Positions 2,852 to 60,506 of a DNA stretch of 64,000 nt are shown piece by piece. The position numbers and the translations under genes were made by a program. Origin of the DNA: an uncultured Candidatus Saccharibacteria bacterium (GTDB lineage Bacteria; Patescibacteriota; Minisyncoccia; Minisyncoccales; CG1-02-41-26). Under the pieces are notes generated by a model. The model saw only the letters and a list, made by a program, of their open reading frames with translations, ran no database searches and had not been told where the DNA came from. Numbering within the stretch: the first letter of the stretch is position 1; every line of letters begins with the position of its first letter. The stretch lies in contig CAZLUG010000002.1 in the NCBI GenBank assembly GCA_964562675.1, positions 5,852-69,851 of the forward strand, in the 5' to 3' direction.

Positions 2852-4957
2852 ATGCCAAGACAATATCCTTTAGAAAGAATTCGTGATATAGGAATAATTG
2901 CTCATATTGACGCCGGTAAAACAACAGTAACGGAGCGAGTTTTATTTTATACCGGTATTAGCCATAAAATAGGAGAGGTGCATAACGGCCAGGCTATTAT
3001 GGATTGGATGGCCGAGGAGAAAGAAAGAGGTATTACTATTACTTCTGCTTCAACTACTTGCCACTGGATTCCTTTGGCATCAAATCGCAGGAAGGAGGAT
3101 GAATACCAGATAAATATTATTGATACACCGGGACACATTGATTTTACGGTTGAAGTCCAAAGGAGCTTACGTGTTTTAGACGGGGCGATAGTTGTCTTTG
3201 ATGGAGTAGCAGGAGTAGAGCCCCAGTCAGAAACAGTCTGGCGCCAAGCTGATAAGTTTCAGGTACCAAGAATTTGTTTTATTAACAAGATGGATAGAAT
3301 GGGAGCGAATTTTGACAAAAGTTTTCAGTCTATTATAGAAAAATTATCTCCTCAGGCAGTGGCTATTCAAATCCCTATTGGCCAAGAAGAAAAATTCGAA
3401 GGTGTTATTGACCTTATCCAAATGAAAGCTTTGTATTTTGAGGGGGCTTTCGGCCAAGAAGTAAAAGAGAAAGATATTCCGGATAACTTAAAGGAAACGG
3501 CTATGGCTGCGCGAGAAAAAATGCTGGAAAAAATAGCCGGGGAAGATGATGTATTATTAGAAAAATTTGTTCGGAAAGAAAGCATTTCCGTAGAAGAAAT
3601 AAAAAAATCTCTCCGCAAAACTACTCTAAGTTATAAAATTATCCCCGTCCTTTGCGGTTCAGCCTTAAAAGACAAGGGTATTCAACCTTTGTTGGATGCT
3701 GTTTGTGCTTATCTGCCCAGTCCTCAGGATCTTCCATCCACTCAAGGCACGAATCCATTAACGGGTGAAAAAACCGAGAGGGAACAATCAGATTCTGCAC
3801 CCTTTACGGCCTTGGTTTTTAAAATTGCGACCGACCCTTACGTTGGAACCTTAAACTACTTTCGGGTTTATTCCGGCTCTTTAAAGAAAGGGTCATATCT
3901 TTTGAATACAACAACTGGAGTTAAAGAAAGAATCGGCCGGCTTCTCAGAATGCATGCCAATCAAAGGATGGAATTAGATGAAGTCTTTACCGGAGATATC
4001 GCTGCGACGGTTGGATTGAAAAGAACTAGCACTGGGCACACCCTTTGTGATCCAGACCATCCTATTATTTTAGAAAAAATTACTTTTCCCGAACCGGTGA
4101 TTTCAATTAAGATTGAACCAAAAACTAGAGCTGACCAAGAAAAACTTACTTTGGCGTTAAAAAAACTTGCTGATGAAGACCCAACCTTTAGAGTTAAAGA
4201 AAATATCGAAACAGGAGAAACTATTATTTCTGGCATGGGAGAACTTCATTTAGATGTTCTTATTGATCGGATGAAAAGAGAATTTCAAGTAGAGGCTGAT
4301 ATTGGGAAACCTCAAGTGGCTTACAAAGAAACTATTTGTGCCAATTCGGAGGCAGAAGGAAAATATATTCACCAATCAGGAGGCAGAGGACAATATGGGC
4401 ATGTTTGGTTGCGAGTTCAACCGCGTTCGCGAGGCGAGGGTTTTGAATTTAAAAATGAGATTAAAGGAGGAGTTATTCCTCAAGAGTTTATTCCCGCGGT
4501 TAAAAAGGGCGTTGAAGAAATGATGAGTAAGGGTGTCCTGGCAGGTTATCCGATGGTTGATATGGAAGTGGCGCTTTATGATGGTTCTTTTCACGAAGTT
4601 GATTCTTCGGAGATTGCTTTTAAAATTGCTGCTGCCGAAGCATTGAAGTCTGCTTCCCAAAAAGCAAAACCTATTCTTTTAGAGCCTGTCATGAAAATTG
4701 AAGTGGTTGTTCCCTCGGAATTTTTTGGCGATGTTATTGGAGACCTTAATCGAAGAAGAGGCCTGATTGAAGAAACAAAGGATAGGATTAATTTAAAAGT
4801 TATTGACGTTAAGGTGCCATTAGCGGAGATGTTTGGTTATGCGACTGGTTTACGCTCTCTGACTCAGGGAAGAGGCACTTTCACCATGGAATTTGACCAT
4901 TATGAGAAAGTTCCAGAGAATATCACAAAGGAGATTATAGAAGGGAAAAGGAGTTGA
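2852..4957 (+). CDS. fusA: elongation factor G
   Basis: 701 aa with G-domain [17 protein letters not shown] and NKMD, and the EF-G domain IV/V C-terminus. Gene order is rpsL-rpsG-fusA-tuf. Confidence 0.97.
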
Positions 4958-4961
4958 TCTT

Positions 4962-5276
4962 GTGTTATTCAGTTTTTTGAGTTATATTCAAACAAATCAA
5001 AGACAATTTATGAATTTAGACGAAATTAAAAATATCCTTACTTCTAGCAGCGATAAATTTGTTTTTATTGAAAACGGCCAGCCGCTTTTTGTGATGATGA
5101 CCTACGCAGAATATAGAAAGAATTTTGGTGCTCAAAAATTGTCGAAAAACGAAAGTGATATTATTGGGAAACAAGAGGAGAAAGTTTTTACGCCCGAACT
5201 TTTATCTTCCCGCGCAAATCAGACCACTAATGATTTACCCAAAGACCACTTGACTTTAGAAGATTTGCCGTTTTGA
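4962..5276 (+). CDS. small hypothetical protein; weak Phd/YefM-antitoxin-like N-terminal pattern
   Basis: GTG start with AAAGGAG 8 nt upstream. The segment NLDEIKNIL...FIENGQPLFVMMTYAEYRKN resembles the YefM/Phd core (xNGxPxAVLxSxEEY). No toxin partner is adjacent. Confidence 0.4.
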   Translation: MLFSFLSYIQTNQRQFMNLDEIKNILTSSSDKFVFIENGQPLFVMMTYAEYRKNFGAQKLSKNESDIIGKQEEKVFTPELLSSRANQTTNDLPKDHLTLEDLPF

Positions 5277-5350
5277 GCACAAAAATTAAATAAATTGGAT
5301 AATTAATAGATAACCATTTCAGCCAGGTCGTTATTTTTTAACCAAAAGGG

Positions 5351-5379
5351 TTGACTTTAAAGTTTCTTTTTTATAAGAT
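5351..5379 (+). promoter_or_regulatory. candidate promoter upstream of tuf (-35 TTGACT, 17-nt spacer, -10 TAAGAT)
   Basis: TTGACT at 5351-5356 and TAAGAT at 5374-5379, in the 218-bp spacer before tuf. Confidence 0.3.
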
Positions 5380-5494
5380 AGAAGAGATTTGATAAAAAAT
5401 TAGGGTCAATATTAAATATAATGGAACCTATCTTGAAACCTAACAACTAGAAGTTATTTTGTTTTAAGATTTATGTTTCAAATTGTAATTTTTT

Positions 5495-6691
5495 ATGGCA
5501 AAAGAAAAATTTGAGAGGACAAAACCTCATTTAAATATAGGGACGATTGGCCACGTTGATCACGGAAAGACTACTTTAACCGCCGCCATTTTAAAGATTT
5601 CTCGAATGGAGGGTTTTAAGGCGTCTGAAAAGGGAGTTACGGAAATTGATTCAGCTCCTGAAGAAAAAGCTCGTGGCTTAACAATTAATATTTCTCATAC
5701 AGAATTTGAAACAAAGAAACGCCATTATGCTTTAATTGATTGTCCGGGTCATGCTGATTACATCAAGAATATGATTACCGGCGTAGCTCAAATGGATGGA
5801 GCTATTTTAGTTGTTTCAGCCGTGGATGGACCAATGCCCCAGACAAGAGAACATGTTTTATTGGCTCGCCAAGTCGGTTTACCGTCAATTGTAGTTTTCC
5901 TTAACAAAACTGATCAGGTTAATGATCCAGAAATGATAGAATTAGTGGAATCTGAAGTAAGAGAATTATTGGACAAATATCAATTTCCAGGAAAAGACAC
6001 GCCGATTATTAAAGGTTCTGCTTTGAAAGCCCTTGAAGCTAAATCTTTAGACGATGAAGTTGCTAAACCAATACTTGAATTATTTAAAACAATAGATGAT
6101 TATTTTCCTGAACCAAAGAGGAATCTTGACAAACCGTTTTTAATGGCTATCGAAGATGTCTTTTCTAAATCAGGAAGAGGCACCGTCGCAACCGGAAGAA
6201 TTGAGAGAGGAATAGTTAAGGCGGGTGATAAAGTGGAATTAGTCGGCTTGCGTCCAACTCAAGAAACCGTAGCAATTAGCATTGAAACATTTAACAAATC
6301 TTTAGATGAAGGAAGAGCAGGTGATAATGTGGGGGTTTTGTTAAGAGGCTTAAAAAAGGATGAAGTAGAACGTGGACAAGTTTTAGCCAAGCCTGGAACT
6401 GTGACTCCCCATTCTGAATTTGAAACAGAAGTTTATATTTTAAAGAAAGAAGAAGGCGGACGCCATACACCATTCTTTTCAGGTTACAAACCTCAGTTTT
6501 ATATTAGAACGTGTGATGTAACCGGAGAAGCTACTTTACCCGAAGGCACAGAAATGGTAATGCCAGGTGATACTGTTAAGTTAAAGGTTAAATTAGCGGC
6601 TCCTGTGGCTTTGGAAGAACAACAAAGATTTGCCATTCGAGAAGGTGGTCGGACAGTAGGAGCAGGCGTTATCACAAAGATAATCAAGTAA
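5495..6691 (+). CDS. tuf: elongation factor Tu
   Basis: [21 protein letters not shown] and NKTD are present in a 398-aa protein. Confidence 0.97.
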
Positions 6692-6739
6692 TAAAAGAAA
6701 AAAAAGTTTTAATTTAAGTGTTTCAATTATTATATTGGC

Positions 6740-7072
6740 ATGCATTCCGAGAAAAAAGATGAAATAAAATCTCGTTTGAGGGTAAAACTTAAATCTTACG
6801 ATTATAAAGTGATAGACATGAGCGCTCATCAGATTGTAGATGTTGCTTTGAGGTCAGGTGTCCAGATTCTAGGGCCAGTGCCCTTACCCACAGAAATTCG
6901 GAAATATACAGTAAACCGAGCAAGTTTTGTTCACAAAGACTCGCGCGAGCAGTTTGAGATGAGAGTCCACAAGAGATTGATTGAGGCTCTCAATCCGAAC
7001 CAGAAATTTATTGATGCTTTGAGGGATATTAACCTTCCGAATGGAGTAGAAATTGAAGTAAAAGCCACCTAA
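6740..7072 (+). CDS. rpsJ: 30S ribosomal protein S10
   Basis: uS10 pattern: LRVKLKSYDYKVIDMSAHQIVD...GPVPLPT...FEMRVHKRLI. Confidence 0.9.
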   Translation: MHSEKKDEIKSRLRVKLKSYDYKVIDMSAHQIVDVALRSGVQILGPVPLPTEIRKYTVNRASFVHKDSREQFEMRVHKRLIEALNPNQKFIDALRDINLPNGVEIEVKAT

Positions 7073-7278
7073 AAAAGAGATGTTCATTTAGTGAAAAATG
7101 CGAAGAGAGTGTTGAATGCAATAGATAATTATCAATCTATTTTTTATGCAGGAAATTTTTATTTTTTAGCATATTTTGCGAGAAAGCCTTGTTTTTAATT
7201 TGTACCGGGCTTAAACCCGGTATTTGATTAGGTAACAAGAGATATACAAACAGGCAGAAAGAGGCAAATTTAGGGTAT

Positions 7279-7872
7279 ATGAGATTTATTTTAGGCAAAA
7301 AAATAAAAATGGATCAGTTTTTCAACGAAGAGGGAATTTCGCCAGTTACTTTAATAGGGGCCGGGCCTTGTTTTATTACTCAATTAAAAAAGAAAGAAAA
7401 AGACGGTTATGAAGCAGTTCAAATCGGCTATGAAAAATTAAAGTCACAGAGAATACGGAAGACAATGAAAGGTAAAGAGTTTCGGTATCTTAGAGAATTT
7501 AAAGACGAAATTAAGAATTATAAAGTCGGACAGGAAATTAGTATCGCTATTTTCCAAAAAGGCGATAAAGTTAAAGTCTCTGGTTTTAGCAAAGGGAAAG
7601 GATTCCAAGGAGCAGTCAAGAGATGGGGTTTCACCGGAAGAAATGCAACCCATGGAGTGAAACATGAACATCGAACTTTAGGTTCAGTTGGAGGAGCTTA
7701 TCCTCAGCACGTTATGAAAGGGAAAAAAATGCCTGGAAGAATGGGAGGAGAACGAACCTCGGTTAAAAACTTAGAAATTGTTTGGATTAATAAAGCCGAA
7801 AATTTGTTAGCCTTAAAAGGAGCGGTGCCTGGCCGAAAGGGAACATTGCTTGAGATTCAAACGAGAGAGTAA
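7279..7872 (+). CDS. rplC: 50S ribosomal protein L3
   Basis: uL3 pattern: ILGKKIKMDQFFNEEGISPVTLI...KGKGFQGAVKRWGF...KMPGRMGGERTSVKNLEIV. Confidence 0.93.
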   Translation: MRFILGKKIKMDQFFNEEGISPVTLIGAGPCFITQLKKKEKDGYEAVQIGYEKLKSQRIRKTMKGKEFRYLREFKDEIKNYKVGQEISIAIFQKGDKVKVSGFSKGKGFQGAVKRWGFTGRNATHGVKHEHRTLGSVGGAYPQHVMKGKKMPGRMGGERTSVKNLEIVWINKAENLLALKGAVPGRKGTLLEIQTRE

Positions 7873-7889
7873 CCGTTTTTTATTAAATC

Positions 7890-8534
7890 TTGAAAATTAT
7901 GAAAGCTTCTGTTTATGATTCAAAAGGCAAAGAAGTTAAGCAAATAACCCTCCCCAAAGATATTTTCAATGTAGAAGTGAACCTTGATTTATTACATCAG
8001 GTAGTTGTTTCTCAGATGTCTAATCGGCGTAAAACGATTGCCCATACTAAAGACCGAGGAGAGGTGCGTGGAGGAGGAAGAAAACCTTGGCGTCAAAAGG
8101 GGACAGGGAGAGCTAGGCACGGGTCACGCCGGTCTCCTATTTGGATTGGTGGTGGAGTGACTTTTGGGCCGAGAAAGGAAAAAATATTTAAAAAGGGTAT
8201 ACCGAGAAAAATGAGGAGAAAGGCTCTATTTATGGCGCTTTCGGCGAAGGCGAAAGGAAATTTGTTAACACTTCTTGATAAATTAGAACTTGACAAAGCA
8301 AAAACAAAAGAGATGTTTAAAATTCTGGGGAATTTACCTTGTCGACAACGAAACGTTTTGTTGATTTTACCAAGCTGCGATAAAAAAATTATCTTGGCTT
8401 CGAAAAATATTCCTGGGATTTCCACAATTCAAGCTAAAGATATCAATGTTCTAGATTTATTGTCATTTAAATATTTGTTGATGCCGGAAAAATCAATTAA
8501 GATTATTAAAAATACTTTTGCAAAAACAAGTTAA
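7890..8534 (+). CDS. rplD: 50S ribosomal protein L4
   Basis: uL4 pattern: GGGRKPWRQKGTGRARHGSRRSPIWIGGGVTFGP. Confidence 0.93.
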   Translation: MKIMKASVYDSKGKEVKQITLPKDIFNVEVNLDLLHQVVVSQMSNRRKTIAHTKDRGEVRGGGRKPWRQKGTGRARHGSRRSPIWIGGGVTFGPRKEKIFKKGIPRKMRRKALFMALSAKAKGNLLTLLDKLELDKAKTKEMFKILGNLPCRQRNVLLILPSCDKKIILASKNIPGISTIQAKDINVLDLLSFKYLLMPEKSIKIIKNTFAKTS

Positions 8535-8595
8535 AATTTATTTTATTAAAGATAAAAATTTTCAGCCTTTATATTTAATGTTTTAATATCTTAGT

Positions 8596-9072
8596 ATGGC
8601 TTTATTAAATGTTTTTAAGAAAAAGCAACCTTCAGGAAAAAAAGAAAAGAGTCCGGAGAAAATTTCGAATACCCAAAAAACAAAGAAAAAAGCTGAAGCA
8701 AAAGTTTTGAAAAAAGAAAAAACGCAAGGGGCAAAGACCGCTAAAACTTCCGCTCGACCGGTTAATTTTACGGCAAAAGGGAAACCTTATCACGAATCTT
8801 TCCGAATTTTACAGTCTCCCCATGTAACCGAAAAAGCTACTGCCTTAGCTGACAAAAATCAATACATATTTAAAGTTTATCATTCTGCCAACAAAACCGA
8901 GATTAAAAAAGCAGTTGAAAGTATTTACAACGTTCAGGTAGTTTCTGTGCATACGGCTAGTTTACCCGGGAAAAAAAGGCGTCTTGGTAAGCAAACTGGT
9001 TGGAAAAAAGGATATAAAAAAGCGATAGTTTCTTTAAAGGCTGGTCAGGAGATAGAAATTTTGCCAAGATAA
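8596..9072 (+). CDS. rplW: 50S ribosomal protein L23 (with ~60-aa lysine-rich N-terminal extension)
   Basis: uL23 C-terminal core: PHVTEKATALADKNQYIFKV...KTEIKKAVESIYNVQVVSV. Confidence 0.9.
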   Translation: MALLNVFKKKQPSGKKEKSPEKISNTQKTKKKAEAKVLKKEKTQGAKTAKTSARPVNFTAKGKPYHESFRILQSPHVTEKATALADKNQYIFKVYHSANKTEIKKAVESIYNVQVVSVHTASLPGKKRRLGKQTGWKKGYKKAIVSLKAGQEIEILPR

Positions 9073-9119
9073 TATTATTTTTTCCTTGCTCGGCTTCGAA
9101 CGGAGAATAGTTAATAATT

Positions 9120-9920
9120 ATGAATTTAGGGAAGAGAAAAAAAATATTGGCCAAAAAAAGGCCGGAGAGAAGCTTGGTTAAACCACTGAAAAGCAAAGGC
9201 GGCCGGTTTTTTTCCGGAAGAATTTCGATTCGCCATCGAGGCGGGGGAGTGAAAAAACTTTATCGCCTGGTAGATTTTAAGAATCAAAGATTAGGCGAAA
9301 GAGCCAAAGTACAAGCTTTAGAGTATGACCCAAATAGAACAGCCTATATTGCTCTTTTGGAATATGAAGATGGTCAAAAAAAATATATTATCGCTCCCGA
9401 CAAACTGAAGAAAGGAGACGAAATTATAATATCTGAAAAAGCACCGCTGAGCCCGGGCAATCGGATGGCGCTAAAAAATATTCCTGTCGGAACGGTTGTT
9501 CATAATATTGAGATTAATCCCGGTCAAGGGGGGAAAATTGCTAAAGCAGCGGGTAATGCATGCGAAATTGTTGCTCAAGAAGGAAAATACACGATCTTAA
9601 AAATGCCGTCTCGGGAGCTCAGGAAAATACTTTCTAATTGTTTTGCTTCAATAGGAGTAGTTTCAAACGTTGAACACCGTTTTCAAAAAGTTGGAAAAGC
9701 AGGTTCTCGGCGCTTAAAAGGGTGGCGGCCAACGGTTCGCGGATCGGCAATGAATCCTTGTGATCACCCTCACGGAGGCGGAGAAGGCAGGACGTCAATT
9801 GGCTTGAAGTACCCAAAGACGCCATGGGGAAAACCAGCCCTAGGTGTGAGAACACGGCGGCGCAAATGGAATGATAAACTTATTCTTAAACGGAGGAAAA
9901 AAGGCAAAAGAAATTCGTAA
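9120..9920 (+). CDS. rplB: 50S ribosomal protein L2
   Basis: uL2 pattern: RNQRLGERAKVQALEYDPNRTAYIAL...GWRPTVRGSAMNPCDHPHGGGEG. Confidence 0.95.
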   Translation: MNLGKRKKILAKKRPERSLVKPLKSKGGRFFSGRISIRHRGGGVKKLYRLVDFKNQRLGERAKVQALEYDPNRTAYIALLEYEDGQKKYIIAPDKLKKGDEIIISEKAPLSPGNRMALKNIPVGTVVHNIEINPGQGGKIAKAAGNACEIVAQEGKYTILKMPSRELRKILSNCFASIGVVSNVEHRFQKVGKAGSRRLKGWRPTVRGSAMNPCDHPHGGGEGRTSIGLKYPKTPWGKPALGVRTRRRKWNDKLILKRRKKGKRNS

Positions 9921-9950
9921 TTTAAATAGTTAAAAATCCATCACAAAATT

Positions 9951-10250
9951 ATGAGCAGGAGTTTAAAAAAAGGACCATATGTCAATGAGAAATTATTAAA
10001 GAAATTGTCAAAGCTTAAGGCTGGAGACAAAACGGTTATTAAAACTTGGTCAAGATCTTCAACTATTACCCCAGAAATGACCGGTTTTACATTCGGGGTT
10101 TATAACGGGAAAGAACATTTGAAAGTTTATATCACCGAAGATATGATTGGGCACAAATTAGGAGAGTTTTCCCCGACGACTAAATTTCACCGACACGGCG
10201 GGAAAATGCAAAAAGAGCTTGAGTCAAAGAGTAAAACAACAAATCAATAG
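9951..10250 (+). CDS. rpsS: 30S ribosomal protein S19
   Basis: uS19 pattern: [11 protein letters not shown]...[40 protein letters not shown]. Confidence 0.95.
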
Positions 10251-41472: not shown

Positions 41473-41567
41473 AATTTACTCTGAAGACTTGCGATAATCT
41501 TATTTTGTAAATTTTGTTTAAGTTTTTCTGAATTAAATTTTAATGTGTTTTTCTAAGGAGAATTTCT

Positions 41568-42773
41568 ATGTTGAATGGATTACAAACGGAGAAGATATTT
41601 ACGGTCAGCGAATTTATTTCTCTCCTAAATAGAATTTTGTTGCCCCAGAGAGCGATTGTTCAAGGAGAGGTGGGAAAGATGAGTCAAAGAGCTAGCTATA
41701 CATTTTTCCCGCTTCGTGATAAGCAAAAACAAGAGACTTTAAATTGTTTTGTCTGGCAGGATAAGTTGGAATATTTTGGGACTACTCTCAAAGAGGGGAT
41801 GGAAATAAAAGTTGAAGGTTTCCCAGCTATCTTTCGCCGTACCGGAAGTTTAAATTTTCAAGTAGAACAGATTGCGTTGGTAGGAGAAGGAGCCCTAAAA
41901 CAGGCTTTTGAAGCTTTAAAAAGAAAACTTAAAGAACTTGGCTATTTTTCTTTAGAGCATAAAAAGGTCATTCCTCGATTTTCGCAAAAGATAGGACTTA
42001 TTACTTCTCGTTTTGCCGCTGCAAAAACTGATTTTCTTGAGCATCTCGGCAAATTCAGCTTCGAAATTTATTTTTATGATGTCAGAGTTGAGGGAATAAG
42101 AGCAGTAGATGATATTATTAGGGCTATCCGTTGGTTTAATGAAAATATGTCTGACATTGATGTTCTCGTTATAACTCGTGGCGGAGGAAGTTGGGAAAGC
42201 CTGCAAGCTTTTAACTCGGAAATGGTTGCCAGAGCTATTTTTGCCTCAAAGATTCCTATTATTGCGGGGGTAGGTCATGAGGTAGATGAAACAATTGCTG
42301 GTTTTATAGCTGATAAAAGAGCATCAACTCCCACCCATGCTGCTCGAATCTTAAGTGATCCTTGGAAATTAGCCCGAGAATTAGTTGCAGAAGCCAAAGA
42401 AAATATTTTTTCCGCTTTAGCAAAATCCCGCCGTAATTATCAAATCCGCCTCAATAATATTTTTGCCCAAAATCTTTCTCTGTTTCGGGAAGCTCTCAGA
42501 AGGAACAATAAAGAGTTATCACAAAAAACTGTTCAGCTTTTTCAAAATTATTCACATTGGCTGGGAAGGCTAAAAAACACCTTAGATCAATATCAGGAAA
42601 AACTGATTCTTTCCAGCCCCCAACTGAAACTTAAGCAGGGTTATAGTATTGTTTTTAATCAAAAAGGTGAAATTCTTAAAAGAGCAGATGAGCTGAAACT
42701 TGGAGAAGAAATGACAACTATATTCTATCGCGGGAAGGCTAAATCAGAAGTAAAGAAATTAATCGATAAATAG
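41568..42773 (+). CDS. xseA: exodeoxyribonuclease VII large subunit
   Basis: N-terminal OB fold (IVQGEVGKMSQRASYTFFPLRDKQ...LNCFVWQ) and central catalytic region (GLITSRFAAAKTDF...VITRGGGSWESL). Confidence 0.9.
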   Translation: MLNGLQTEKIFTVSEFISLLNRILLPQRAIVQGEVGKMSQRASYTFFPLRDKQKQETLNCFVWQDKLEYFGTTLKEGMEIKVEGFPAIFRRTGSLNFQVEQIALVGEGALKQAFEALKRKLKELGYFSLEHKKVIPRFSQKIGLITSRFAAAKTDFLEHLGKFSFEIYFYDVRVEGIRAVDDIIRAIRWFNENMSDIDVLVITRGGGSWESLQAFNSEMVARAIFASKIPIIAGVGHEVDETIAGFIADKRASTPTHAARILSDPWKLARELVAEAKENIFSALAKSRRNYQIRLNNIFAQNLSLFREALRRNNKELSQKTVQLFQNYSHWLGRLKNTLDQYQEKLILSSPQLKLKQGYSIVFNQKGEILKRADELKLGEEMTTIFYRGKAKSEVKKLIDK

Positions 42774-52621: not shown

Positions 52622-53750
52622 TATGCACATGAAGATACATGGGTGACACTCTAAAAATCAAGAAATATGAAGGAACCCATTGATTTAAAGGATGTTACCT
52701 ACTGTGATAGAGTGGAAATTAAGCTAATCTACGAATTGGGTTATCGTTTAATCAATGAAGTGGTTCTGCTCTATCATATGCTCTCATTTTTAAATAAATA
52801 CAATGATTTTTCCAAGGAAGCCAAACCAAAACTAAAATGGATAGACTATTATCATCAATGTGGCAATGTTTCTAAGATCTGTTGATGTTTCGGCATTTCC
52901 CGCCAATGTTTCTATGAATGGTATTGAAAATATGGCCCGAACAACCTTTACGCCCTGGAAAATCGATCTACCACCTCTATCAGGAAAAGACAAAGAGAAA
53001 TTACTCCAGAACAAACATTAAGAGTTATCGGGTTAAGAAAGAAATATATTCGCCACAGCAAGATTAAACTGGCCAGAATCTATCAACGAGAATATGGAGA
53101 AGTTATTTCTTCCTGGAAAGTCCAAAAAGTCATTAAGAAATACAGACTCTACCACAATTCCAAGAAAATCACTAAAATTCCGTATAAACGCTTAATCGCC
53201 ATTCAGAAGAAGAGAATCACCGAACTGAACAAAAAGCCTAAAAATGGATTTTTTCTTTGTTTAGATGCTATTAAATTAAGAATGAACAATCTCAAAATAT
53301 ACATCTTTACCGAAATAGATTCTTTTTTAAGGTGGCTTTCGCCTGAATGTACAAGAATGCTAATCCCTACAACGCAGCTGATTTCCTTAATAGGTTGCTT
53401 TACTTAGTTAACGGAAGAATTGAAAACATTCAAACAGATAACGGAAGTGAAATTGAAAAATACTTTAACCAGGCCTGCCGAAAAATGGGATTAGTTAGAT
53501 ATTACAGCCATCCGAGAACCCCTAAGGATAATCCAGTCAATGAACAATTAAACAAAACCTTAGAAGATGAATTTATCAGTCTTATCAATTTTAATCCTAA
53601 TGTTACGTAATTTAACAAGAACCTGACCGAATGGCTGATTGAATACAATTTTAAAAGGCTCCATCAGGCACTTAACTACGAAACGTCGATAAAATTCAAT
53701 AATTTTATTAAAGTGTCACCTATGTGCTCATCGCACACAATAGATTGACA
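52622..53750. mobile_element. degraded IS element (IS481-family-like DDE/rve transposase), ~1.1 kb
   Basis: Imperfect terminal inverted repeats share the core GGTGACACT (52642-52650) against AGTGTCACC (53712-53720). The interior encodes rve-integrase-core fragments in at least three frames. Confidence 0.6.
52667..53748 (+). pseudogene. frameshifted DDE transposase (integrase core domain) pseudogene
   Basis: One frame gives ...LCLDAIKLRMNNLKIYIFTEIDSFLRW... (first D and second D regions). Another frame gives IQTDNGSEIEKYF...YSHPRTPKDNPVNEQLNKTLEDEF (DNGSEF and E/K region). A third frame gives the C-terminal ...TEWLIEYNFKRLHQALNYET. Stops and frameshifts lie between the pieces. Confidence 0.6.
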
Positions 53751-54089: not shown

Positions 54090-54133
54090 TCATCCATTTT
54101 TGAGGGAGAGAATATTACTCTCCCTCTATCATT

Positions 54134-54688
54134 TTGTATAATATGGTTATAGAATTTGAATTTTTTCTCATAATAATAATTTTATTTTTATTAATCTTTT
54201 TTTCTCCTACCACGGTAAAAGCAGCTTTTATGGGAGCGCCGTTTGTGCCCACTCCAAAAAAGATAATTCGTAAAGCCTTGAAAACTGCTCATTTGAAAAA
54301 AAACGAGAAATTATATGATTTGGGTTGCGGCACTGGAAGGGTTTTGGTTATTGGAGCAAAGGAATTTGGGGCGAAAGTGACAGGGGTGGAATATTCTATA
54401 CCTCTTTTTGCTTTGGCTAAAATAAATCTGCTCTTGCACAAAATTAAAAATGGAAAAATTTATAGAAAAGATTTCTTTAAAGAAAACATAAAATTAAATA
54501 ACGCTGATGTTGTTTTTTTATTCTTAACCCCAAAAGCTTTTCCTAAGCTGAAAGGTAAATTTGAGAGAGAGTTAAAACCAGGCACTAGAATAATCGCTTA
54601 TTCCTCTCCTCTTTTATTTTGGGAACCAACCGAAACAGTTTTTACTCCAAATCCAAAAATAAAGATATATCTCTATATCAAGAGGTAA
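54134..54688 (+). CDS. membrane-anchored small class I SAM-dependent methyltransferase (CbiT-like), paralog 1
   Basis: N-terminal TM FFLIIIILFLLIFF. Then GAPFVPTPKKIIRKALKTAHLKKNEKLYDLGCGTGRVLVIGA (motif I) and the acidic motif-II residue in VTGVEYS. Confidence 0.75.
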   Translation: MYNMVIEFEFFLIIIILFLLIFFSPTTVKAAFMGAPFVPTPKKIIRKALKTAHLKKNEKLYDLGCGTGRVLVIGAKEFGAKVTGVEYSIPLFALAKINLLLHKIKNGKIYRKDFFKENIKLNNADVVFLFLTPKAFPKLKGKFERELKPGTRIIAYSSPLLFWEPTETVFTPNPKIKIYLYIKR

Positions 54689-55131: not shown

Positions 55132-56277
55132 ATGGATAGTTTAAGTGTTAATTTATTTACATCATCGTGTTTTATAACTGGTTTCTTGGCAATAGGATTA
55201 GGTGTTTTTGTTCTCTCAAAGGGGTATAGAAAAAAAACGCATCGTGCGTGGTTTTTATTAAGTTTAGCTATATTTATATGGTCAATAGCCCTGGGTGGAA
55301 CGACGATTGCTAAAAACAAGGAAATTGCCTTATTTTGGCAAAGAATATTATATATAGGAACTATTTTATTGCCCGTTTTGTTCCTAGATTTTTGTTCGTT
55401 TTTTACAAAGGTTTCTCATGGCATAAAGCGAATATTATGGATAGGTTCTATTTTAACAGCCATTTTTTTAATTTCTGTCTTCACAAAATTTTTTATAGCA
55501 GGAATAGAACCGAGAACTAGTTTTGGTTACTGGCCTATAAAAACTGGGGTTTTATACCCTTTGTTTTTAGCGTTCTTCGCGTTTTATATTAGTTATTCAT
55601 TTATCCTCTTGAAAAAAGTTTATAATCAATCTTATGGAATTAAAAAGCGGCAAATATCATTTTTATATTATGGAGCTCTTATTGGTTTTATTGGTGGTTC
55701 AACTAATTTTCTATTAGATTTTGATATCAAAAATTTTTACCCTTTTGGAAATTTCTTTATCGCATTATACGTTGTAATCGTAACTTATGCGATGTTCAAA
55801 TATCATTTAATGGAAATTAAACTCATAGCTACTCAATTGTCTGTTGGACTAGTAGCTATTATTCTTTTCGTAGATATTTTATTATCAAACTCACTAATTA
55901 TTTTTTGGCTAAAGATAGGTATATTTTTTGGATTTCTTTACCTTGGCTATTTATTAATTAAAAGCGTTTTAAACGAAACAAACCAAAGACAAAGAATAGC
56001 GAAAATGGCAAAGGAACTAGCGGAAAATAATGATTCTCTCAAAGAACTTAACGGGACACTTGATGAAAAGGTGAAAGAAAGAACGGAAGAGTTGGAAAAA
56101 AGCAGAGCAACACTTGAAAAAACTAATAAGGATTTAGGAAAGAGCACAAAGGAAATAGAAGATAAGGAAAAAGAACTCGAAAAATGGTATAATCTAACTG
56201 TCGGTCGGGAATTAAAAATGATAGAGTTAAAAAAGAAAATTGAGGAATTGAAAGGAAAAGATCAAGTTTACAGATAA
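55132..56277 (+). CDS. multi-pass membrane sensor-domain protein with C-terminal coiled coil (kinase-less paralog of the downstream histidine kinase N-terminus)
   Basis: About 7 TM segments. Blocks are shared with the 57818 protein: WSIALGG/WALAVGL, YAMFKYHLMEIKLIATQLSVGLVAIILFV/YAITKHHLFNIKVILTELFVGLISFFLLV and FLYLGYLLIKSV/FLYLGYSLIKSV. The C-terminal ~110 aa is a K/E-rich coiled coil with no HisKA/HATPase. Confidence 0.6.
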   Translation: MDSLSVNLFTSSCFITGFLAIGLGVFVLSKGYRKKTHRAWFLLSLAIFIWSIALGGTTIAKNKEIALFWQRILYIGTILLPVLFLDFCSFFTKVSHGIKRILWIGSILTAIFLISVFTKFFIAGIEPRTSFGYWPIKTGVLYPLFLAFFAFYISYSFILLKKVYNQSYGIKKRQISFLYYGALIGFIGGSTNFLLDFDIKNFYPFGNFFIALYVVIVTYAMFKYHLMEIKLIATQLSVGLVAIILFVDILLSNSLIIFWLKIGIFFGFLYLGYLLIKSVLNETNQRQRIAKMAKELAENNDSLKELNGTLDEKVKERTEELEKSRATLEKTNKDLGKSTKEIEDKEKELEKWYNLTVGRELKMIELKKKIEELKGKDQVYR

Positions 56278-56280
56278 ATT

Positions 56281-56976
56281 ATGCAGAAATCAAAATTCTG
56301 GGAAAAATACTTTAGGGTTTATGATGTTTTGAATTTCTTTATTCCGTACCAAGAATTATTGGATAAAATCTGTGAGGTTTTAGAAATTCAACCGGGAGAA
56401 AGAGTGCTAGACGCAGGTTGTGGTACAGGAAACTTAGCTATTAAAATGGACAGAAGGGGGGGGCGAGTAATTGGTCTAGATAATTGTGAAGAAGCATTAA
56501 AAACCTTTAGAAAAAAAAATCCTTCTATTAAATTGATATTTGCTGATTTAACACAAAAATTTCCTTTCCCGGATAATTATTTTGACAAAATTGCTTCTAA
56601 TAACGTGCTTTATACTATCCAAAGCGAAAAACTTAAATTAGTTCTAAAGGAGTTATTTCGTGTATTAAAACCGAATGGGAAATTGGCAATATCTAATCCT
56701 AAAAAAAATTGGAGTGCGTTTAAAATTTATAGTTATGGCTTTAAAAAAAGTCTTTCTAAAAATGGTTTCCTTTTGACAACCCATCATGTTTTTAAAACAG
56801 TTGTACCTACACTAAAAATTCTTTATTATAACCATTTAATAAGAAAAATGTGGCATTACCATTTTTTTCAACCGGAAGAGCAAAAACAACTTCTTCTCAA
56901 AATTGGATTTAAAGAGGTATCTAATGATATTTTTTTATATGGCAAACAAGTAATTTTAAATGTAGGTACAAAATAA
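56281..56976 (+). CDS. class I SAM-dependent methyltransferase
   Basis: Motif I VLDAGCGTGNLAIKM, motif II-like VIGLDNCEEAL, and post-I LKPNGKLAI. Confidence 0.8.
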   Translation: MQKSKFWEKYFRVYDVLNFFIPYQELLDKICEVLEIQPGERVLDAGCGTGNLAIKMDRRGGRVIGLDNCEEALKTFRKKNPSIKLIFADLTQKFPFPDNYFDKIASNNVLYTIQSEKLKLVLKELFRVLKPNGKLAISNPKKNWSAFKIYSYGFKKSLSKNGFLLTTHHVFKTVVPTLKILYYNHLIRKMWHYHFFQPEEQKQLLLKIGFKEVSNDIFLYGKQVILNVGTK

Positions 56977-57110: not shown

Positions 57111-57785
57111 ATGAAATTACTGCTAACAACTAAGATTGACAAAAAAAATGTTTTGAAATTCGGCATTCCAACGAATAAAATAGAAAGAGAGAAAATTTTT
57201 AAATTAAGATATACTGTTTATATCCTAGAAAAAGGTTATCGAGAATCAAAAGCTACTGTTAAGAAACAAGAATATGATAAATATGATCGAAAAGTACGAA
57301 CTCAATACTTTATGGCTTTACTTGGTAAAAAACTGGTGGGGACAATTAGATTAGTAGTGGGAAGACCACTGCCTGTAATGGAAGATTACTTCGAATTTCA
57401 AGAACCCAAAGAAACAAAGAAATTTTCATCTAATCAAATAGCTGAAATAAGCCGGGCAATTTCGCGACCTAGAGGCGCTGCCCTTCCTCGTCACATAGTC
57501 TCCCTCGGGCTATTTTTCTGTCTCTTGCAGTGGAGCTCTAAACATAATATCAAAGTTGAATACGAAGTAGTTAAGAAGGATTTAGCAATAAAATTAAAAA
57601 AAATTAATTTACCCCTTCATAAAATTAAAAATTTTTCTCTAAAAAACACCCCCTTAACTCGTGAATATTCTGGTTATTTTAAAAAAAACACAAATAATCT
57701 TTTCATTTTTTACTTTTTCACCAGAAAAGTACAAAATCAATTAGAGAAAATTCTTTCCAAAATGCAATATCTGAAAATTACTTAG
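57111..57785 (+). CDS. LuxI-family (autoinducer synthase / N-acyl amino acid synthase-like) GNAT-fold acyltransferase
   Basis: The LuxI signature is aligned against V. fischeri LuxI recalled from memory (not database-verified): LRYTVY..EKGY (LRYQVF..LEW), EYDKYD (ESDEYD), YFMALLGKKLVGTIRLV (YIYACDD..VSGCWRLL) and EISRAIS (ELSRFAV). Confidence 0.6.
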   Translation: MKLLLTTKIDKKNVLKFGIPTNKIEREKIFKLRYTVYILEKGYRESKATVKKQEYDKYDRKVRTQYFMALLGKKLVGTIRLVVGRPLPVMEDYFEFQEPKETKKFSSNQIAEISRAISRPRGAALPRHIVSLGLFFCLLQWSSKHNIKVEYEVVKKDLAIKLKKINLPLHKIKNFSLKNTPLTREYSGYFKKNTNNLFIFYFFTRKVQNQLEKILSKMQYLKIT

Positions 57786-57817: not shown

Positions 57818-59482
57818 TTGACTCTTGTTAAAACAACTATGGAAATTGGGGCTTTAATTTCGATTATTGTAAGTTTAATCAACTTCTTTTTTGGGTTATT
57901 CATCCTGATAAAAAACTCTAAAGATTTATCAAGTAAGCTTTATTTTATTTTATCTACCTCAGCTTCTATTTGGGCATTAGCCGTTGGATTAGGCAGAATA
58001 TCTCAATCTTTCCCTACCTTACTATTATGGGAAAAAATCTCTTACATAGGGGGAATTGGGACGGCTCTTTTCTTTTTCTACTTTTCTATTGTTTTCCCTT
58101 TCTTTAGCTTCTTTCGGATTCGCAAAAAGAATAATCTAGCTCTTTCTGTTTTAGTATTGCCTCTCATTCTTTTCGTTTTTTTGTTAAAAATAATTATTTT
58201 CAACTTTGATACCTTCGTACAAAATGTGGCATTTGCGAGTTCCTCTAAATACGTAATCGCCAGTATCATATTCAAGTTCGGTAAAAATTATACTCTCTAC
58301 GTTCTATTTATTCCTGTCCTATTCGGGTTAGCATTAATTAATCTATTCCTTAAATATAAAAAAGCTACCCATACTGAAAAAGCACAAATATTTTTTGTTA
58401 TCTTAGGAACTTCAATTTCTTTGTTTTCAGCAATATTTTTAAACCTTATACCTAGAAGGAACATTCTTGAGTATAATTATCTTGCTCCAAGTTTCATATT
58501 AGCAACTGTTATATCTATCGCTTATGCCATTACAAAACACCATCTCTTTAATATTAAGGTTATTCTTACAGAATTATTTGTTGGATTGATTTCATTCTTT
58601 CTACTTGTAAAAGTATTCATAGGACAAAATACTACCGAGCGATTACTTTGGTTACTCATTACTATCATTTTTCTTTATCTTGGTTATTCATTAATCAAAA
58701 GTGTCTGGAGAGAAATAAAAAGGCGGAAGAAATTAGAAATTTTAACACACCAACTAGAAAAAGCTAATGCGGAATTAAAACGGATAGACAAATCTAAAAC
58801 AGAGTTTTTGTCTATGGCCTCTCACCAATTAAGAACACCTCTCACCGCTATCAAGGGATATATTTCAATGTCTTTAGAGGGGGATTACGGTCAACTCTCT
58901 GAAAGAGAGAAACGAGTTCTAAAAAACGTTTACCAATCAAATGAAAGGTTAATCAATATCGTAAACGATTTATTAAATATTTCACGAATTGATTTGGGGA
59001 AAATGGAGCTTAAGAAAGCACCAGTTCGAATCAATAAACTTATAGAAAGTATTTCTCAAGAATTTCAGGAAAAATTTAAAGAAAAAAATCTGAAATTTAT
59101 ATTCCAAAAATCTAAAGAACCTTTGCCAGAAATTGAAGCTGATGCTCTAAAAATTTCTCAAGTGATATCTAATCTTTTAGACAACGCTTTGAAATATACA
59201 CGTAAAGGTTCTATTGTGATTGCTTCTAAATTTGACCCGCTGAAAAAGATTATTTTGATATCTGTTCAAGATACTGGCGAAGGGTTAAATAAAGAAGAAA
59301 AAGGGAAAATATTTGAGAGTTTTGTGAGAGGGTCAGCTGGAATTAATGACTGGGTACAAGGAGTTGGGTTGGGGCTTTGTGTGGCAAAACGTTATGTAGA
59401 ACTTCACCACGGAAAGATTTGGGTAGAATCTGCCGGGAAGGGGAGAGGCGCTACTTTCTATGTTGCACTACCGGTAAAATAA
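57818..59482 (+). CDS. sensor histidine kinase with N-terminal 7TM-type sensor domain
   Basis: ~7 TM segments, then a coiled-coil linker. HisKA is EFLSMASHQLRTPLTAIKGY. HATPase_c has N-box NLLDNALKYT, G1 DTGEGL and G2 GVGLGL. TTG start at 57818; ATG at 57839 is possible. No response regulator is in the window. Confidence 0.85.
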   Translation: MTLVKTTMEIGALISIIVSLINFFFGLFILIKNSKDLSSKLYFILSTSASIWALAVGLGRISQSFPTLLLWEKISYIGGIGTALFFFYFSIVFPFFSFFRIRKKNNLALSVLVLPLILFVFLLKIIIFNFDTFVQNVAFASSSKYVIASIIFKFGKNYTLYVLFIPVLFGLALINLFLKYKKATHTEKAQIFFVILGTSISLFSAIFLNLIPRRNILEYNYLAPSFILATVISIAYAITKHHLFNIKVILTELFVGLISFFLLVKVFIGQNTTERLLWLLITIIFLYLGYSLIKSVWREIKRRKKLEILTHQLEKANAELKRIDKSKTEFLSMASHQLRTPLTAIKGYISMSLEGDYGQLSEREKRVLKNVYQSNERLINIVNDLLNISRIDLGKMELKKAPVRINKLIESISQEFQEKFKEKNLKFIFQKSKEPLPEIEADALKISQVISNLLDNALKYTRKGSIVIASKFDPLKKIILISVQDTGEGLNKEEKGKIFESFVRGSAGINDWVQGVGLGLCVAKRYVELHHGKIWVESAGKGRGATFYVALPVK

Positions 59483-59639: not shown

Positions 59640-60161
59640 ATGTATCTTTTAATTCTGTATCTCTCAATTTTAGGACTAACTATACTATTACTCTCCGGCG
59701 CTCTTTTTGATGCCCCCTGGGTTCCAACTAGAAAAAGAGATTTTGAGCGAATAGCAAAATTAGCAAAATTGCAACCAGGAATATCATTTTATGATTTGGG
59801 TTGCGGCACGGGAGAAATGCTATTTTATTTGTCTTCTAAGTACAAAGTAAATTGTGTAGGCGTGGAAATATCGCCAATTTTATATTTGTATTCAAAAATA
59901 AAATCGCTGTTTTATAAAAGAGTAAAAATCATATACGGCGATTTTTATCAACATAACATATCAAAAGCTGACATTGTATATGCTTTTTTAATGCCTAAAT
60001 CTATGGATAAGCTAAAGAGAAAAATTAAGAAAGAATCAAAAAAAGATGCAAGAATTATAATATCATGTTGGTCGCTTCAAGGTTACAATCCAACGTTAAT
60101 AAGCCAAAAAAATAATAGGATGACATATTATCTATATGGAAAATCCGCTCTATTAAAATAG
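59640..60161 (+). CDS. membrane-anchored small class I SAM-dependent methyltransferase (CbiT-like), paralog 2
   Basis: N-terminal TM LLILYLSILGLTILLLSGALF. Then DAPWVPTRKRDFERIAKLAKLQPGISFYDLGCGTGEMLF, the same architecture as the 54134 gene. Confidence 0.75.
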   Translation: MYLLILYLSILGLTILLLSGALFDAPWVPTRKRDFERIAKLAKLQPGISFYDLGCGTGEMLFYLSSKYKVNCVGVEISPILYLYSKIKSLFYKRVKIIYGDFYQHNISKADIVYAFLMPKSMDKLKRKIKKESKKDARIIISCWSLQGYNPTLISQKNNRMTYYLYGKSALLK

Positions 60162-60254
60162 GGCGGATTAGCGTATGGGAAATATGTTTCTTTATTCCCG
60201 ATTGTTTTGCTGTCCTTGCAACTTACACACATCCTTCTGGCAGAGTCTGCTTAG

Positions 60255-60283
60255 AGTCTATCGAAGTTAAACTTCGATAGACT
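60255..60283 (+). terminator. perfect 12-bp hairpin (AGTCTATCGAAG-TTAAA-CTTCGATAGACT) followed by TCTTTAATGTTT
   Basis: Seen directly, ~95 nt downstream of the methyltransferase stop. It could be a terminator or a protein-binding palindrome. Confidence 0.35.
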
Positions 60284-60506
60284 TCTTTAATGTTTAATGC
60301 AAAGATAGTATTCTCTCTAAACCAAGACTACCAGTGGCAAAAACCGCTATATATGTGTAAACATTACCTAAAGCATTTGGCAAGAACTAAAAAATTACTT
60401 ATAATAAAAGGAGCGACAGTGAATTTAAAGATTATTTTTTTAAGAGCAATTATTGATAAATTAGTTCCAAAACGCCTTTAACCTTAGAAGATTTCTTTAT
60501 GAATCA

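Follow-up and report, generated by a model that had tools for sequence, protein, structure and literature searches.

In textbook two-component sensors, the input domain and the transmitter belong to one chain. It is also well known that a separate protein can feed a kinase, as with chemoreceptors and CheA or with accessory kinase regulators such as RetS and LadS on GacS, LiaF on LiaS, and YycH/I on WalK; to our knowledge, the accessory regulators form pairs confined to particular lineages, with no portable motif in common. In another type of division, exemplified by CheA3/CheA4, the split is said to lie within the transmitter, between the DHp and the catalytic domain. Within single proteins, the S-helix, a heptad coiled coil with an "ERT" signature, has been described as an intramolecular connector between two signaling domains (Anantharaman, Balaji & Aravind 2006, PMC1592074). 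Here, we describe an open reading frame (ORF A) in a 64,000-nucleotide stretch (hereafter "the window") of contig CAZLUG010000002.1 from an uncultured Candidatus Saccharibacteria bacterium, which encodes a HisKA_7TM sensor without a kinase core and ends in a conserved C-terminal tail. From the genomic company kept by this tail elsewhere, we slightly favor a model in which ORF A provides the sensing part of a split system and works through a kinase encoded elsewhere that bears an N-terminal "LED" motif. The gene, its parts, and the nearest kinase gene are as follows.

55132..56277, + strand: ORF A, kinase-less sensor with nine transmembrane (TM) segments and a conserved C-terminal tail (381 aa, ATG start; from the ORF list, Pfam, homologues, and an AlphaFold2 (AF2) model)
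55171..55818, + strand: HisKA_7TM sensor domain of ORF A (residues 14–229), TM1–TM7 (PF16927, hydropathy, AF2)
55825..55971, + strand: TM8–TM9 (residues 232–280), including the family-wide juxtamembrane block FLYLGYLLIKSV (hydropathy, alignment, AF2)
55972..56172, + strand: helical cytoplasmic stalk (residues 281–347) with one S-helix-like "KERT" unit (xRT regular expression, AF2, S-helix definition of PMC1592074)
56173..56250, + strand: terminal motif ELEKWYNLTVGRELKMIELKKKIEEL (residues 348–373) with a putative docking role (motif position, profile, consensus over 105 units)
57818..59482, + strand: ORF B (kinase B), complete HisKA_7TM-HisKA-HATPase_c histidine kinase (554 aa; Pfam)

Among 5.8 billion proteins searched, the best relatives of ORF A were full-length HisKA_7TM kinases of 530–550 aa (45–53% identity), and kinase-less relatives of 337–380 aa were also found. 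With the HisKA_7TM kinases (PF16927), ORF A shares the 7-TM sensor, two extra TM helices, and the juxtamembrane helix, at a sensor identity of 55–56%; it differs from them in having neither a DHp/H-box nor an ATPase domain, and in a tail with the core GRELKM as its candidate output. The PF16927 match of ORF A spans residues 14–229 with 67.5 bits (E = 2e-18; gathering cut-off 28.6), and no other significant Pfam domain was found: HisKA was not detected at E ≤ 0.1, HATPase_c (the GHKL ATP-binding domain) was not found in a chain that stops at residue 381, and MCPsignal was not matched. Kinase B displays a PF16927 match of 48.9 bits (same cut-off) along with both HisKA and HATPase_c. A previous reading of the window from its letters and ORFs (the sequence-only reading) had proposed that ORF A shares the entire multi-TM sensor architecture of kinase B while lacking its kinase domains, and this is borne out: both proteins have PF16927 and nine hydrophobic segments in a hydropathy script, and the distribution of Lys/Arg between their loops is alike, a positive-inside pattern that suggests an N-out/C-in orientation for both. 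Nor is the similarity merely hydrophobic, since BLASTP aligned the two proteins at 27% identity over 316 aa with E = 2e-24 under composition-adjusted statistics.

The AF2 model of ORF A, built from a 26-sequence alignment, has a mean predicted local distance difference test score (pLDDT) of 87.1 and likewise displays nine TM helices, i.e., the seven of the PF16927 domain and two extra ones, as does hydropathy, by which TM6 is weakly hydrophobic. A short beta-hairpin (residues 122–138) is predicted within an outside loop. Helices were modeled at residues 232–250 and 255–334, with TM9 running unbroken into the cytoplasmic helix, then a low-confidence break at residues 335–339 and a last helix at residues 340–380. 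A Foldseek search of this model against the PDB was uninformative, returning generic 7-TM bundles alone (G-protein-coupled receptor TM domains) with a TM-score of ~0.35.

The C-terminal ~110 aa of ORF A (residues ~272–381) had been described in the sequence-only reading as a K/E-rich coiled coil. The region is indeed helical and K/E-rich, with 25 K+R and 24 D+E across residues 281–381, but it is also a conserved module, ERT plus GRELKM, common to thousands of proteins. The ERT of ORF A stands at residues 316–318 ("VKERTEEL") inside the continuous predicted helix 255–334, an assignment made by motif and model only. In kinase-less relatives, the tails align as V(K/Q)ERTxEL units followed by ELE(K/R)(F/W)xxLTVGRELKMIELKK; ORF A has ELEKWYNLTVGRELKMIELKK at residues 348–368, which corresponds to G-R-E-L-x-M-x-x-L preceded by ELE(K/R)(F/W). 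The invariant stretch starts at G358, 24 residues before the C-terminus (residue 381), and every residue that is invariant in a 54-column tail profile (G, R, E, L, M, L) is kept in ORF A at the canonical distance from the stop. A near-identical copy of ORF A (P0001) scored 77.7 bits against this profile (E = 4e-17), with the tail of ORF A itself among the profile-building sequences. Not every kinase-less HisKA_7TM member has the same terminus, as P0009 (344 aa, sensor 47% identical to ORF A) contains an ERT unit without the GRELKM ending.

For the ~65 residues that follow the ERT of ORF A, searches of Pfam, NCBIfam, and PDB sequences gave no tail match beyond coiled-coil noise. By eye, GRELKM resembles the SHELRTPL of an H-box, and we considered whether the tail could be a degenerate DHp domain; this was ruled out by hhalign against a DHp alignment (probability 0.4%). 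The stalk itself resembles the S-helix in being a heptad-periodic helix with "ERT" placed directly after the last TM helix or HAMP domain, and differs in that only the ~26-residue motif and the C-terminus follow, so that the downstream domain would apparently come from another polypeptide. One S-helix feature, the position between two signaling domains, is thus missing in ORF A because only a helical tail follows. Taken together, these alignments indicate that the tail is an S-helix-like stalk with a conserved terminal motif, i.e., a discrete module and no generic coiled coil.

This module is widespread. A search of 1.84 billion cluster representatives with the tail profile gave 14,311 matches at E ≤ 1e-3, of which 1,815 reached E ≤ 1e-10. 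Of the 150 best matches, nearly all fall at the extreme C-terminus of proteins of 62–920 aa with 0–9 TM segments. The N-terminal parts ahead of the tail include HAMP, dCache-HAMP, PAS, GAF, REC, and unrelated TM bundles, along with one archaeal soluble protein. For 94 tail proteins, the Pfam families detected were HAMP (41), HisKA_7TM (12), dCache_1 (11), and PAS (~11), as well as GAF, PocR, and 5TMR-LYT, while HisKA, HATPase_c, GGDEF, EAL, and MCPsignal were all absent from the 25 commonest of the 42 matched families. Arrays of 5–8 PAS or 4 GAF domains precede the tail in proteins from other phyla. Among 54 homologues of ORF A, 35 carry the tail, 18–48 aa from the C-terminal end and behind differing sensors.

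We sampled 80 tail loci with the tail profile from one-genome-per-species GTDB contigs (with at least 497 confirmed among the first 600 pattern matches), and scored them with our own regular expressions, our own ORF caller, and small hidden Markov models (HMMs) for REC and for the kinase core, the latter built from 9 sequences. These loci come from Patescibacteria, DPANN, methanogenic archaea, Nitrospirota, Planctomycetota, Bacteroidota, Myxococcota, Desulfobacterota, and Chloroflexota, among others. Across their 105 tail ORFs or units, the motif core lies 18–37 residues from the C-terminus (median 24), preceded by 0–4 ERT-type units, and a kinase core was found in the same chain in none of the 105 ORFs. 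REC was found in the same chain for 7 of the 105, located at the start of the protein (loci L035, L037, L053, L064, L067, L071, and L081), which suggests that the tail may also serve as the output of response-regulator-like proteins and would imply a phosphorylation-controlled input to a second kinase.

With adjacency defined as a kinase gene on the same strand starting −30 to +40 nt downstream, 25 of 98 tail genes were directly followed by a kinase gene, compared to 27 of 837 other genes at the same loci (odds ratio 10.3, Fisher p = 8e-13). Twenty of these 25 adjacent kinases have no TM segment, and 20 carry an N-terminal LED motif ("LNILED"), in many cases as 2–5 tandem units of 21 residues each, (T/S)QRAxLN(I/L)LED(F/Y)xxEK. 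The motif was less frequent in nearby (6/40) and distant (6/20) kinases than in adjacent ones (20/25), was found in 4 of 892 non-kinase genes, and did not occur in any of the 10 7TM-kinase homologues of ORF A. Six adjacent LED kinases were analyzed with Pfam, and are minimal, consisting of the LED repeats, HisKA, and HATPase_c with no sensor domain; the LED part of these six gave no Pfam match.

The association also holds in the other direction. In an independent sample of JGI (Joint Genome Institute) metagenome contigs, with the LED double repeat as the sole criterion of choice (of the first 600 matches, 454 were confirmed), we identified 78 LED-repeat ORFs, of which 60 were informative, i.e., started away from a contig edge. 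A GRELKM-tail gene lies immediately upstream of 50 of these 60, most commonly with a 4-nt overlap, while the tail motif was found in the same ORF as the LED repeat in 0 of 78. About half of the ten exceptions have their LED units after a long N-terminal region in one protein, i.e., they are fused sensors without a tail. Because the tail is so regularly upstream and never in the same ORF, gene order indicates that tail and LED behave as a two-gene pair in place of the covalent junction between sensor and transmitter. The gaps between the two genes vary from −26 to +46 nt with a change of frame, which suggests translational coupling rather than read-through or programmed frameshifting.

Several tail loci combine a membrane sensor with an LED kinase in Patescibacteria. 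At locus L013, the stop of a TM-tail gene (6633) is followed at 6634 by the start of a soluble PAS-HisKA-HATPase LED kinase and then by two single-domain REC genes; the syntenic locus L012 encodes a TM-tail and a PAS-tail protein, one LED kinase, and two REC proteins, and the kinases of both loci carry an ALMN(M/I)LED helix. L043 encodes a 9-TM tail protein, a soluble LED kinase, and two REC proteins. It was considered as a direct HisKA_7TM precedent and retained as a multi-TM precedent instead, its sensor being distant from that of ORF A (TM7–9, E 0.005) and without a PF16927 call. Further patescibacterial membrane-sensor precedents are L068, L073, and L089, and at L030 two PF16927 tail genes lie 3.7 kb from an LED kinase. 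Whenever a multi-TM (≥6 TM) tail gene has any kinase within 5 kb, an LED kinase is nearby (5/5). Other PF16927-type tail genes are strongly amplified: five adjacent ones plus two more at L001/L014, and eight at L017. In Paceibacterota, such kinase-less 7TM-tail genes occupy 5001–10159 and 16197–18319 of L014 (7 genes), 7009–15459 of L017 (8 genes), and 8001–9077 of L007 (1 gene), and in the L014 and L017 arrays the sensor copy number is strongly expanded, with no kinase seen nearby.

These patterns led us to the following model for ORF A. The HisKA_7TM bundle and its two further TM helices would sense a membrane or extracytoplasmic cue, and TM9 would continue as a dimeric signaling helix (the S-helix-like ERT unit) ending in the ~26-residue conserved helix ELEKWxxLTVGRELKMIELKK near the free C-terminus. 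This terminal helix would dock onto, or couple to, a separately encoded transmitter kinase bearing one or several N-terminal "QRAxLN(I/L)LED" units, and the docked kinase-less sensor would control autophosphorylation of the kinase and, through it, single-domain response regulators. Several of these sensors, in some cases 5–8 in tandem, probably converge on one LED kinase in Patescibacteria, and the cognate kinase of ORF A would sit outside the 64-kb window. Conserved hydrophobic positions (L, V, L, I around T-V-G-R-E-L-K-M-I in the tail, and those of the consensus I-L-N-I-L-E-D-F in the LED unit) exceed the needs of a two-stranded coiled coil, which is compatible with a four-helix assembly.

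A broader version of this model, which we rate a little below an even chance, would make the GRELKM tail and the LNILED repeat a universal, portable, and non-covalent "plug and socket" for any sensor type in bacteria and archaea, from 7TM, HAMP/Cache, multi-PAS, and GAF to even REC. Kinases with 2–5 LED units would then integrate several sensors, arrays of 5–8 tandem 7TM-tail genes would provide a many-to-one, receptor-array-like wiring onto ordinary two-component kinases, and ORF A would be one plug-in sensor.

Several observations weigh against these proposals. No LED-like motif was found in any frame of the 64-kb window, and the sole nearby kinase, B, is LED-negative; since the window holds no LED protein, the claim for ORF A is built on the homology of its tail and not on its own context. 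A kinase gene directly follows only 3 of 26 multi-TM (≥6 TM) tail genes, and for the strict PF16927-type relatives of ORF A the usual setting is a tandem array or a stretch of housekeeping genes, with no kinase in the vicinity. Charge complementarity is weak (net charge +0.5 for the tail core and −2.8 for the LED unit). Finally, a simple register-matched pairing of 21-residue ERT units with 21-residue LED units was considered and is unsupported, as unit counts were uncorrelated in the 25 adjacent pairs (Spearman rho 0.04, p 0.85).

The arrangement recalls several known systems without matching any. Like chemotaxis receptors (MCPs, methyl-accepting chemotaxis proteins) with CheA, tail proteins are kinase-less receptors whose cytoplasmic domains are long and helical and include one highly conserved region, with many receptors per kinase, and kinase and receivers are encoded alongside them. 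They differ in that MCPsignal is not among the 25 top families of the 94 tail proteins, the ORF A model lacks a hairpin four-helix bundle, no CheW was seen at the loci inspected, and the six partner kinases checked are ordinary HisKA/HATPase_c proteins and not CheA. Accessory regulators likewise supply or modulate the sensory input of a kinase as separate proteins by protein–protein contact, whereas here one tail/LED motif pair recurs across many bacterial and archaeal phyla. As for "split histidine kinases" (Amin et al. 2013, PMC3591291), these also spread kinase functions over two polypeptides, but here the transmitter is intact and the split falls between sensor and transmitter. A full-text literature search with the motif strings and descriptions of split systems gave nothing relevant, subscription-only literature being outside its reach, and the tail is not described in the S-helix paper (PMC1592074) or in archaeal two-component system papers. 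A portable tail/LED pair spanning bacteria and archaea thus appears to be undescribed in searchable sources.

A few tail proteins carry unusual combinations. GRELKM occurs twice in one chain in P0141 (920 aa), P0055, P0056, and P0184. In P0141, from a GC-rich organism, a HAMP domain is followed by an internal GRELKM copy, PocR, an LED-like helix ("MNLAEDA"), PAS, and a terminal copy, with no kinase, making it a rare single chain that holds both motif types. At L011, a FIST/FIST_C sensor-domain protein (4579–5991) is encoded immediately upstream of a HAMP-tail protein (6001–6987), possibly as a further layer of trans-acting input. The L012 operon also encodes two paralogous, Pfam-negative proteins of ~200 aa (6888–7484 and 8050–8658) that alternate with its two tail proteins, together with three small TM proteins and one that faintly resembles V4R; P0061 (96 aa) resembles the N-terminus of this ~200-aa paralogue domain joined directly to a tail.

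Could ORF A instead act on its neighbor, kinase B? The two proteins might form a heteromer through their TM bundles or juxtamembrane helices, with ORF A as a co-sensor or dominant-negative regulator, and the genes are indeed on the same strand, 1.5 kb apart, within a co-directional block bracketed by terminator-like hairpins at 54102–54126 and 60254–60284. Beyond their common fold and topology, the near-identical juxtamembrane block noted by the sequence-only reading is present in both (FLYLGYLLIKSV in ORF A, FLYLGYSLIKSV in kinase B), and at locus L004 a 7TM kinase lies ~3 kb from two 7TM-tail genes. The block, FLYLGY(L/S)LIKSV, is however conserved across the whole 7TM family in our alignment and not peculiar to this pair, so it denotes no special link. 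Similarly, calling the two proteins copies of the same sensor was too strong, as the sensor region of ORF A is 27% identical to kinase B and 55–56% identical to kinases P0002–P0004 from other genomes. In a neighbor-joining tree of sensor domains, ORF A is nested inside a kinase clade from other genomes and, conversely, kinase P0021 inside the kinase-less (tail) clade, which points to repeated exchange of kinase and non-kinase C-termini on the 7TM scaffold. By these comparisons, ORF A and kinase B are no recent duplicate pair, and ORF A is no close copy of B. We also considered whether ORF A could be an orthologue of its closest kinases that was truncated in situ, and ruled this out as P0002 and P0003 are not syntenic with it: both follow Flavoprotein and DFP genes (PF02441/PF04127), a conserved context unlike that of ORF A.

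Action on kinase B would moreover leave the same tail on PAS, GAF, HAMP, and REC proteins unexplained, as well as the arrays of 5–8 tail genes without a 7TM kinase nearby. Since the LED motif typical of kinases coupled to tail genes is absent from kinase B, B is probably not the cognate kinase of ORF A, and should not be presumed its partner despite lying close by; overall, we consider a functional A–B pair unlikely. The suggestion that ORF A is a signaling partner therefore holds in part: it is most likely a partner protein and not junk, but comparative genomics points to a separate LED kinase and not to B.

Somewhat less likely still, the tail may recruit a non-kinase partner, such as a stand-alone receiver or a division or envelope component, and ORF A would then be a scaffold or localization receptor. 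Most 7TM-tail genes have no kinase nearby, and at some loci a single-domain REC gene directly flanks a tail gene with no kinase between them (e.g., L014, 18 nt downstream; L046; L070), but REC genes are expected in any two-component operon. Three Paceibacterota genomes also share the slot xseA ... [array] - LiaF_TM-like - DUF4342 - HIT - ftsZ. This ftsZ proximity may be plain synteny within one lineage, and is not found in the window, where xseA lies at 41544–42770 and ftsZ is absent; it is also the only hint toward the filament- or septum-associated roles raised earlier, which like the decoy and dominant-negative roles have no specific support. By comparison, the association that is statistically supported in both directions and across phyla is the one with LED kinases.

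The remaining readings involve the genes around ORF A, which include the following.

54134–54688, + strand: TM-anchored S-adenosylmethionine (SAM) methyltransferase (MTase) with an N-terminal hydrophobic anchor
56281–56976, + strand: class I SAM MTase, starting 4 nt past the ORF A stop
57111–57785, + strand: FeeM/autoinducer-synthase-like acyltransferase (GNAT-type), ending 33 nt upstream of kinase B
59640–60161, + strand: TM-anchored SAM MTase with an N-terminal hydrophobic anchor

As an addition to, rather than an alternative for, the output of ORF A, its S-helix-like stalk could be a methylation-regulated switch acted upon by the class I MTase at 56281–56976. This enzyme has a very weak CheR match (E 0.005) among many MTase families, and there is a precedent in Bacillus cereus, where RsbM methylates the S-helix of RsbK (PMC4574943). 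Generic Methyltransf_11/25 domains are nevertheless uninformative on substrate, and the gene is not recurrent beside tail genes, with two weak homologues in the 80 tail loci, each >2.8 kb from the tail gene. A regulatory role of this MTase is thus conceivable but unsupported, and we regard a methylation switch as improbable. Least probable, and essentially refuted by the conserved terminal motif, is that ORF A is functionless, a decaying leftover of a kinase gene whose 3' half was lost. Its best matches being full-length kinases would fit this, as would a degraded insertion sequence (IS) element and a dip in GC immediately upstream. Against it, the C-terminus of ORF A retains, at the canonical stop distance, all invariant residues of a module that thousands of proteins share; its AF2 model is confident; and downstream there is no kinase leftover, the next gene beginning 4 nt on.

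The A...B region is flanked by the two TM-anchored MTases, which are paralogous to each other (37% identity over 156 aa, E 7e-24). For the acyltransferase, matches were obtained to FeeM (E 3e-8), to autoinducer synthases (E 1e-4), and to TIGR03694 (PEP-CTERM/exosortase-associated; E 2e-18, below cut-off). The position of this putative lipid-signal synthase directly before the 7TM kinase B suggests that the two form a synthase/sensor pair, and hints that acylated molecules may be what HisKA_7TM domains sense. No response regulator was found in the window by phmmer with two single-domain receivers of the Candidate Phyla Radiation (CPR) as queries, which makes kinase B an orphan within the limits of the window. 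We considered whether the neighbors of ORF A are part of a conserved system and ruled this out: the 80 tail loci contain no homologues of the TM-anchored MTases (54134 and 59640), the FeeM-like gene, or a HAD gene, and since none of the neighbors recurs next to tail genes elsewhere, they appear to stand outside the conserved system.

Upstream of the block, at ~52667–53610 (+ strand), there are degraded transposase remnants, including a helix-turn-helix (HTH)-like stretch (...GISRQCFYEWY*KYGP...) interrupted by an in-frame stop, and an 87-aa ORF whose rve/rve_3 matches are weak (E 0.002–0.004, below cut-off). The GC content is 0.30–0.31 at 54–58 kb, just downstream of these remnants, compared to ~0.35 elsewhere, and the A–B block may have been acquired or rearranged. 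In promoter and terminator scans, 52.3–60.3 kb was no richer than shuffled sequence.

Should tail and LED truly form an interface, thousands of proteins currently labeled "PAS domain S-box protein" or "HAMP domain-containing protein" would gain an output, as would those annotated "histidine kinase N-terminal 7TM domain-containing protein", and many seemingly sensor-less kinases would gain their input. The tail and LED motifs would also offer a compact, natural, and modular docking pair for rewiring sensors to kinases in synthetic biology. For reduced genomes such as those of CPR/Patescibacteria and DPANN, the signaling census would shift, with few kinases and tail sensors that may be numerous.

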